Sequence record: GQ981382
Length of the DNA: 64,000 bases
Strand: one strand, 5' to 3'
Source: Shigella phage SP18
In this document: positions 39,377-40,136 of the stretch, piece after piece
Position numbering within the stretch: position 1 is the first letter of the stretch
How the letters are laid out: each line of letters begins with the position of its first letter
Program-made: the position numbers and the translations under genes
The notes under the pieces: generated by a model
The model's database searches: none
The model's input: the letters and a program-made list of their open reading frames with translations, nothing else
What the model was told of the DNA's origin: nothing

Positions 39377-39384
39377 TATAAATA
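39377..39384 (+). promoter_or_regulatory. Late promoter motif TATAAATA upstream of the second HNH endonuclease gene
   Basis: Exact TATAAATA 27 nt upstream of the ATG at 39411, with an AGAGGA RBS between. Confidence 0.65.
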
Positions 39385-39410
39385 TAGTATATCACCAAAG
39401 AGGACATACA

Positions 39411-40136
39411 ATGAATTATGCTTTAATATATGAGAATTTAATGAACCGAGCCAAATCTAGAAAATTGACTGGATACAAAGAATCTCACCATGTTGTTCCT
39501 CAATGTTTAGGCGGACCAGATACAAAAGAAAACCGAGTTGATTTAACGCCGGAAGAGCATTATCTAGCACATCAACTATTGGTAAAAATTAATCCAGAAC
39601 ATAAAGGATTGAAATATGCTGCCTATATGATGACTATATCACCAGATGGTCGCCGACAGAATAATAAATTATTCGGTTGGTTAAAGAGAGATTACTTAAA
39701 CAATAGAATTCAATCATCCGGAATGAAAGGGAAAAAGCATAAACCCGAATCAATTCAATTGATGAAAGATAAACGTGCTCTCCAAAAAATCACCGAAACA
39801 ACTAAAGCCAAAATATCTAAAACAAAAACTGGTGTAAAATTTACAAAAGAAGCACTAAAATCATTTAATGAAAAACGTTCCGCAAACCAAGCATGGATTG
39901 ATTCCAATTTTAGGCCATGTAAAGAAAGCACCAAATCTAAAATTGGCGATGCCAATAGGGGTCGTGTTTTTGATAAAAAGACCTGCCCTCATTGTGGTAA
40001 AACTGGAGCAGGCCCTAATATGAAACGGTATCATTTTGATAATTGCAAATCAAAAGTCGCCAAATGCAACCTGCCAGCATTCAACACCAATACGACGCCA
40101 CATCTCGACAACGTTTTGCCTATCGTCAACGGCTAA
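39411..40136 (+). CDS. HNH homing endonuclease (mob-like), second copy, free-standing
   Basis: [36 protein letters not shown] core, paralogous to the 16186 gene; C-terminal Cys/His cluster (CPHCGKTG...C); own TATAAATA and AGAGGA RBS; opposite strand to its neighbours. Confidence 0.8.

Follow-up and report, generated by a model that had tools for sequence, protein, structure and literature searches.

A MobE-family homing endonuclease cassette at the pseT 3´ end of a VR7-like T-even phage, with a predicted target in pseT and a candidate operator

T4 MobE, a free-standing HNH endonuclease that is encoded between nrdA and nrdB and is polymorphic among T-even phages, has its target inside an adjacent conserved gene and off its insertion point: it nicks T2 nrdB at nucleotides 122–126, away from the insertion site and where T2 and T4 differ (PMC2790892). 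I-TevI, a GIY-YIG enzyme encoded in the td intron, is a modular protein whose extended DNA-binding region contains a zinc finger. Its operator resembles the homing site, overlaps its own late promoter and mediates autorepression (PMC2988022). Unrelated enzymes can also occupy one intergenic slot, as when SegH and Hef replace mobC and mobE (Sandegren et al. 2005, cited in PMC2988022). Here, we describe a homing endonuclease gene (HEG) on the plus strand of a 64,000-nucleotide stretch of Shigella phage SP18 (GQ981382; the whole stretch is hereafter called the window), which is a Gaprivervirus, a VR7-like T-even coliphage. The gene is likely to form a MobE-family cassette that is located between the start of cd.4 and the stop codon of pseT and homes into HEG-less pseT, with carriers being immune through a recoded pseT end; a copy of the target at its promoter is tentatively read as an operator.

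On homology, the HEG product is a free-standing MobE-family HNH homing endonuclease, the catalysis of which is predicted. Its identity, proposed in the first-pass annotation, is borne out by a match to PHROG 655 ('homing endonuclease', E 1.8e-63), by 51% identity between its first 75 residues and T4 MobE (E 9e-26) and by the HNH profile of the clade. The mechanically called open reading frame (ORF) extends from TTG 39372 as far as 40136. Its true start is ATG 39411 (MNYALIY...), the position at which all homologs begin, which gives a protein of 241 residues. The HNH nuclease domain comprises residues 1–75 (39411–39635, plus strand) and contains H26, H27, N41, H50 and H54, all of which are invariant among 25 clade members. 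The profile of these 25 proteins finds the McrA HNH domain in the PDB (E 0.003). In it, the HH...N...H core, the arrangement of general-base His, structural Asn and metal-ligand His/Asn of beta-beta-alpha-metal nucleases, lines up with HNH domains from McrA, Cas8-HNH and a group II intron maturase. In the AF2 model this domain has a pLDDT of ~90 and adopts a beta-beta-alpha arrangement formed by strands 24–27 and 42–45 and helix 47–60. Three NUMOD3-like DNA-binding repeats follow at residues 104–187 (39720–39971, plus strand), with limits read from the alignment; they are helical in the AF2 model, and Pfam NUMOD3 scores 22.4 bits, above its cutoff of 20.4. A C-terminal zinc finger, CPHC-x12-H-x3-C, occupies residues 192–212 (39984–40046, plus strand), and its C192, C195, H208 and C212 are invariant in the same set. 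The repeats and the zinc finger are modelled with moderate confidence, and residues 218–241 have a pLDDT below 50.

The gene is an element of a well-known kind and as such is already in databases: VR7 and VR25 carry an annotated ortholog. VR7ORF236w (YP_004063917, vB_EcoM-VR7) and its VR25 counterpart (YP_009209978) are the same gene, with 97.5% amino acid identity and nothing material different; they occupy the same cd.4-pseT slot on the same strand with the same 87-bp overlap. Their annotations name a MobE-like putative mobile nuclease or homing endonuclease, with the VR7 entry reading 'similar to T4 MobE and RB32 ORF054w'. The searchable literature yielded no description of the target, promoter-proximal motif or distribution of VR7ORF236w, and nothing was found on an endonuclease linked to pseT. 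Like MobE-type free-standing genes, the HEG is intergenic and shows a presence/absence polymorphism at a fixed site. The two differ in several respects. MobE has 141 residues and no promoter; its gene shares the strand of its neighbours, depends on translational coupling to nrdA and has an internal terminator. The HEG is longer, at 241 codons, and adds three NUMOD3 repeats and a zinc finger. It is encoded on the strand opposite to its neighbours, is served by a late promoter and ribosome-binding site (RBS) of its own, and is associated with pseT.

Hand alignment to the empty site delimits a 699-bp inserted cassette (39351–40049, plus strand) that is absent from HEG-less relatives. Its left border falls directly after the cd.4 ATG (CAT on the plus strand, 39348–39350) and its right border directly in front of the stop codon of pseT. 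In comparisons with CJ20, DK-13 and P896, homology ends at 39350–39354 and picks up again at 40066–40068. Four states were observed at the cd.4/pseT junction. It is empty in CJ20, VR20, VR5 and FB, in which TAATG serves as both the stop of pseT and the start of cd.4, and also in Moon and XbC2. It holds a 66-residue ORF in DK-13, RZ, MN01 and dhabil, with the T4 slot filled by cd.5. The third state is the opposite-strand HNH gene, and the fourth is a same-strand SegD-like GIY-YIG gene in P896. The cassette was found in seven Gapriverviruses and in nine of 350 matching records, and is absent from ~340 related records; scans of IMG/VR returned VR25 and three distant relatives only.

The cassette is much better conserved than its surroundings. 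It is 97.6–99.3% identical in the seven phages, the flanks of which share 55–90% identity, and the insert is at least 99% identical in PSD2001 and phage 212. Over the 2.5 kb around the HEG, the window shares 97.5% identity with Escherichia phage P479 and 87% with VR7. Sequence lying 100–300 bp away on each side falls to 55–86% identity, whereas the cassette remains at 94–100% in the same comparison. Among six phages, the body of the HEG has accumulated 17 synonymous and four nonsynonymous changes and is under purifying selection. This synonymous excess and the conservation of the cassette over diverged flanks indicate a functional gene that has recently spread horizontally. The recent insertion suggested in the first-pass annotation gains exact borders from the cd.4-pseT comparison, together with a near-identical cassette and divergent flanks. 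KM16 is the only carrier among Moonviruses, and Kaldavass is the only one among its relatives, with XbC2 (92.8% identity) lacking the gene. The presence of sole carriers in these two groups points to independent invasion of at least three phage groups.

The predicted target lies in the pseT gene of HEG-less phages and probably corresponds to codons [S/T]QVVEMW (CCACATNNNNACNACYTG), 49–66 nt from the first base of the stop codon. Of 16 HEG-less loci, 15, T4 among them, have CCACATNNNNACNACYTG inside pseT at a distance of 48 nt from the start of the stop codon; no pseT gene of an HNH-positive phage has it among the loci examined. In the fetched loci it is present once per locus, either in pseT or directly upstream of the HEG promoter. 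The window instead carries the HEG-linked allele CCACATCTCGACAACGTTTTGCCTATC (40098–40124), which encodes QNVVEMW (the QN allele) where HEG-less phages have CCACATYTCNACNACTTG... (DDR[S/T]QVVEMW). The QN allele was observed in all six HNH-positive Gapriverviruses aligned and in the SegD-positive P896, and the search of 50,697 phage records restricted it to nine HNH-positive records plus P896. DDR[S/T]QVVEMW was present in 10 of 10 HEG-less phages examined despite many synonymous differences. The same codon pair also differs in the other groups, with DT in KM16 versus AQ in Moon, CF1 and Merlin, and TK in Kaldavass versus DQ in XbC2. A second recoded patch, shared by the same six HNH-positive phages, is located at the extreme 3´ end of pseT (40050–40071), where AFGDF with a TGA stop replaces the A[HAS]GDF or NHGDF with TAA of HEG-less phages. 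When a carrier was compared with its nearest HEG-less relative in three phage groups, the mismatches lay within the first ~90 nt of pseT counted from its stop and peaked at nt 61–75. KM16 and Moon, for example, differ at 31 positions in the 90 nt of the pseT end and at none in the following 210. A divergent tract bounded in this way is what co-conversion from a nearby break would leave.

The following mechanism is offered as a prediction drawn from comparative data. Late in a mixed infection, the enzyme would nick or cut HEG-less pseT at or near CCACATYTCNACNACTTG (codons [S/T]QVVEMW). Repair from an HEG-bearing genome would copy the cassette and co-convert the last ~90 nt of pseT, and HEG-bearing genomes (QNVVEMW here) would be immune because the target stretch is recoded. 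The target would thus lie, as for MobE, inside the adjacent conserved gene and off the insertion point. More tentatively, the enzyme may bind the ~21-nt target copy at the late promoter and repress its own transcription as I-TevI does. The earlier idea of a possible cleavage target in or near pseT is strongly suggested by the comparative data, with the target itself being predicted. In T4 (locus L105, 8051–8068), pseT contains the predicted sensitive site CCACATTTCAACTACTTG (TQVVEMW), so T4 should be a convenient test recipient for the HEG product.

It is improbable that the endonuclease is instead decaying or domesticated and no longer homes, with its patchiness reflecting ordinary recombination and loss. 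Many free-standing HEGs of T4 are untested or defective (PMC2988022, Table 1), the copy in locus L107 is truncated, and the gene is present but unannotated in P479, PSD2001 and others. However, the ORF is intact with invariant catalytic residues and the synonymous excess in its body, and the cassette is near-identical in diverged backgrounds. Moreover, in three independent groups a single carrier among HEG-less kin has the same sharply bounded tract, which fits gain better than loss.

In P896 (locus L002, 1350–2069, minus strand), the cd.4/pseT slot contains the SegD-like homing endonuclease gene, together with the HNH-type QN allele in a pseT that is 98% identical to that of the window. Because the SegD carrier keeps the QN allele and a window-like pseT, this arrangement suggests that one endonuclease gene replaced the other. 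The case resembles SegH/Hef and mobC/mobE in that unrelated HEGs share one slot of related phages; it differs in that those replacements concern other loci, and here replacement is deduced from one genome.

The HEG lies on the strand from which late genes are read and is preceded by its own expression signals, as had been proposed: a T4-type late promoter TATAAATA at 39377–39384 (plus strand) and a Shine-Dalgarno GAGGA at 39400–39404 (plus strand), 6 nt before the ATG, were both confirmed. Most relatives examined have TATAAATA or CATAAATA at the same position, and the Shine-Dalgarno sequence is kept. The TATAAATA octamer occurs 22 times in the window versus 4.8 expected, and the HEG promoter is its sole plus-strand copy between 19238 and 55358. 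The gene was also said to be the only plus-strand gene of a ~30-kb minus-strand block, and it is the only credible one in that block, which spans 25457–55301. The only other plus-strand ORF of at least 70 residues in the block, at 34816–35130, was rejected as a second gene: it shadows minus-strand ORFs, including a 30.9 homolog, and no late promoter was found for it. In VR7, the HEG homolog is the sole plus-strand coding sequence from alt.-3 to rnh.

A copy of the predicted pseT target is located at this promoter. The 21-nt sequence CCACATCTCCACTACTTGAGT (39357–39377, plus strand), a candidate operator, reads TQVVEMW in reverse complement and has its last nucleotide in common with TATAAATA. 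Compared with HEG-less pseT, it agrees at 19 of 21 positions (DK-13, read off the sequences). When scored over 23 nt, the best matches were 19/23 (DK-13) and 20/23 (VR5), which at most one of 500 shuffles reached, whereas its match to the recoded pseT of the window was not significant in the shuffle test. This mimic is the sole CCACATNNNNACNACYTG match in the window. CCACATNNNNACNACYTG is likewise found upstream of the HEG promoter in VR7, P479, VR25, TH40, TH57, KM16, Kaldavass and loci L108, L012 and L019/L020, and with one mismatch in L111. A spacing of 2–4 nt separates the mimic and the late promoter in at least six lineages. Conservation in the 5´ flank of the HEG is limited to three islands: the motif, the late promoter and the RBS. 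Retention of the motif in L019 despite a different genomic context implies that the motif travels with the cassette. By analogy, the mimic is a plausible I-TevI-like operator for autorepression of the HEG. I-TevI has a homing-site-like sequence matching at 15 of 20 positions at its own late promoter, and the HEG product is similarly modular, with an extended DNA-binding region including a zinc finger. I-TevI, however, belongs to another catalytic family and is intron-encoded, and its binding and repression are demonstrated, whereas those of the HEG product are deduced and its homing site is predicted.

Two other explanations for the conservation of the motif were set aside. A start or leader mini-ORF of the downstream minus-strand gene is unlikely by inspection, since frame and stop relations differ: the motif is in frame in the window and L108, has a stop in KM16 and Kaldavass, and is out of frame in L012. 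An outward sigma-70 extended -10 element is possible in Kaldavass and L012 (TGGTATAAT on the minus strand) and in L111 (TGGTACAAT), but the window has TGGAACCCT at that place, and such a promoter therefore fails to account for the conservation seen here.

Several observations weigh against this overall interpretation. Pfam HNH scores the HEG product at 13.6 bits, under its cutoff of 21.4, and the top Foldseek matches in the PDB, although HNH domains, are weak (E ~0.3); for the elongated model as a whole this comparison yielded nothing informative. The HEG-less GAP32 lacks the CCACATNNNNACNACYTG pattern, and P896, which bears another HEG, carries the 'immune' allele. Linkage confounds the allele–HEG association, and the recoded tract could be hitch-hiking donor sequence instead of immunity under selection. 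The independent invasions with known HEG-less relatives number just about three. The mimic is missing or degenerate in five of ~13 lineages (L013, L015, L018, L109 and L112), and at a paralog of the HEG a simple duplication of 19 nt of the host gene borders the insert, so that similar copies can be mere insertion scars.

The last two points bear on a reading in which the promoter-proximal pseT copy is only the scar of an ancestral insertion, with no regulatory role, and the HEG is otherwise as described. We regard this as a serious but rather doubtful possibility. Duplications of host-gene ends arise on insertion, as the 19-nt repeat of the uvsW 3´ end around the paralog at 16186–16881 illustrates, the reverse-complement frame of the motif still reads TQVVEMW, and five lineages have lost the motif. 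A neutral scar, however, should have decayed. The 14-position motif is intact across HEGs of ~55–70% amino acid identity while the rest of the 5´ flank is unalignable, its 2–4 nt spacing to the promoter is fixed, and by inspection it lies in no conserved ORF on either strand. In addition, it is kept in L019, where the kinase gene differs in both sequence and arrangement.

The HEG converges on pseT and overlaps its 3´ end by 87 bp (40050–40136), or 28 sense codons plus the stop, in agreement with the 29 codons first counted. The identical 241-codon ORF with its 87-bp overlap is present in VR7, VR25, TH40, TH57 and P479. A sequencing or annotation error that places the true stop upstream of 40050, which the first-pass annotation had named as a possibility, is rejected, given that the ORF ends alike in these five phages and that the protein cluster has 14 members. 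K213 is the last codon encoded by the cassette. The read-through tail beyond it (residues 214–241 plus TAA; 40050–40136, plus strand) is antisense to the final 28 codons of pseT and its stop. The codons that follow K213 correspond, on the other strand, to the stop of pseT plus its 27 terminal codons, and the terminating TAA lies in pseT codons 272–273. The cassette brings no stop codon of its own, and the length of the tail is therefore set by a chance stop in the antisense pseT frame. Homologs typically have 215–225 residues and end 2–11 residues past HFDNCK. In the overlap, all five substitutions among six phages are nonsynonymous for the HEG, and four of the five are synonymous for pseT. 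On this substitution pattern, together with the variable length and the low pLDDT, a functional tail is rejected; the 28 codons are unselected read-through that lies outside the functional protein.

The same convergent arrangement recurs across the clade. Relatives at 53–71% identity were found in a Moonvirus, in metagenomes and in a Mimasvirus-like jumbo phage. They too face the 3´ end of a polynucleotide kinase gene, and the overlap, present in nearly all of them, measures 4–36 bp: 36 bp in Salmonella Moonvirus KM16, 20 bp in Erwinia jumbo phage Kaldavass, and 4, 9, 25, 36, 36, 4, 35 and 25 bp, with one 13-nt gap, in ten metagenomic loci representing eight further lineages. An overlap of 4–87 bp was thus observed in all but one of the examined lineages that abut a kinase 3´ end, with none in L112. 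Because of this recurrence, the overlap is an old and passive property of the clade, neither a sign of recency nor a functional extension. The initial view that it was unusual and suggested recent insertion is thereby overturned.

It is very improbable that the overlap itself is functional, whether through a tail that aids DNA binding or through antisense pairing or transcriptional collision that regulates the HEG or pseT. The recurrence of the overlap in nearly every abutting lineage would fit such a role, and because the search for a plus-strand terminator beyond the HEG found none, late transcripts are expected to continue into pseT as antisense RNA. Nevertheless, the length of the overlap varies from 4 to 87 bp, and L112 dispenses with it. 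Tail sequences are unrelated between groups, all five tail substitutions are nonsynonymous, and the tail is predicted to be disordered. The only conserved feature is a cassette that lacks its own stop and whose end coincides with the kinase stop codon. A terminator-like hairpin at the pseT end (40072–40054, minus strand) was given no weight, as three such sites were found versus 1.7 expected.

Association with polynucleotide kinase is a feature of the closer relatives. Every placed relative of at least 53% identity adjoins a polynucleotide kinase gene; those at or below 41% identity do not. In the IMG/VR contigs L019/L020 (503–2417), a 56%-identical relative lies head-to-head upstream of a domain-permuted kinase, with the phosphatase domain first and the kinase domain second; this HEG overlaps another minus-strand ORF by 22 bp and keeps the CCACAT...ACTACTTG motif before its promoter. 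A broader proposal, that a MobE-like clade is specialised on the 3´ ends of phage polynucleotide kinase genes, each cassette carrying a homing-site decoy fused to a late promoter, is speculative and on balance unlikely.

The paralog at 16186–16881 (plus strand) shares 36% identity with the HEG over 200 residues (E 3e-38), mostly in the first 60, and lacks the C-terminal CPHC...HFDNC cluster, so the paralogy, common N-terminal HNH core and differing C-terminus described in the first-pass annotation stand. This MobE-like gene is located directly 3´ of uvsW, with its TTG start overlapping the uvsW TGA as TTGA. The 19-nt direct repeat of the uvsW 3´ end, TAATTAAACAGGTGGAAAT, flanks the insert at 16167–16185 and 16859–16877, and both uvsW and the paralog consequently end in IKQVEI. 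VR7 lacks this insert, and uvsW-linked relatives are found in many T-even phages.

Two minus-strand genes border the HEG. The pseT gene, encoding polynucleotide 5´-kinase/3´-phosphatase, is intact with 301 residues (40050–40955; Pfam HAD_PNKP 4.8e-56, AAA_33 7.6e-21), and the cd.4 homolog has 65 residues (39153–39350; PHROG 2360, E 4.4e-37; annotated as cd.4 in VR7). Within pseT, positions 40151–40450 are just 55–69% identical to VR7, VR25, TH40 and TH57 and ~98% identical to P896, a shift that places a recombination junction inside the gene. Identity to the same four phages is 16% at 41251–41350, and the alignment is lost after ~43550. These gaps, near pseT.1 and rnlA, point to further indels or cassette differences, and the second may partly stem from the ends of the fetched loci. 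Elsewhere in the window, two tandem long minus-strand ORFs at 25812–29756 (686 and 624 residues) correspond to the single alt gene of VR7 and may represent an alt duplication or paralog.

The gene matters little in itself, as T-even phages are rich in free-standing HEGs and annotations of it exist for VR7 and VR25. What appears to be new, on comparative sequence data, is the proposed kinase-specific clade, the predicted target together with the substitutions that would confer immunity, and the mimic beside the promoter. An eye-catching convergent overlap can be the passive by-product of a cassette without its own stop codon. The predicted recognition region, predicted immunity substitutions and candidate operator would allow quick biochemical characterisation of an uncharacterised HNH specificity, and they would help to show how widely phage endonucleases repress themselves through a mimic of the homing site. 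If the broader proposal for the clade were true, this would be the first free-standing HNH endonuclease with I-TevI-style autorepression. The products of pseT and the RNA ligase 1 gene form the T4 counter-defence against the PrrC anticodon nuclease. On this basis, and more speculatively still, the element could cause counter-defence alleles to be inherited preferentially or exchanged, in line with the recent SegB result (PMC13096335).

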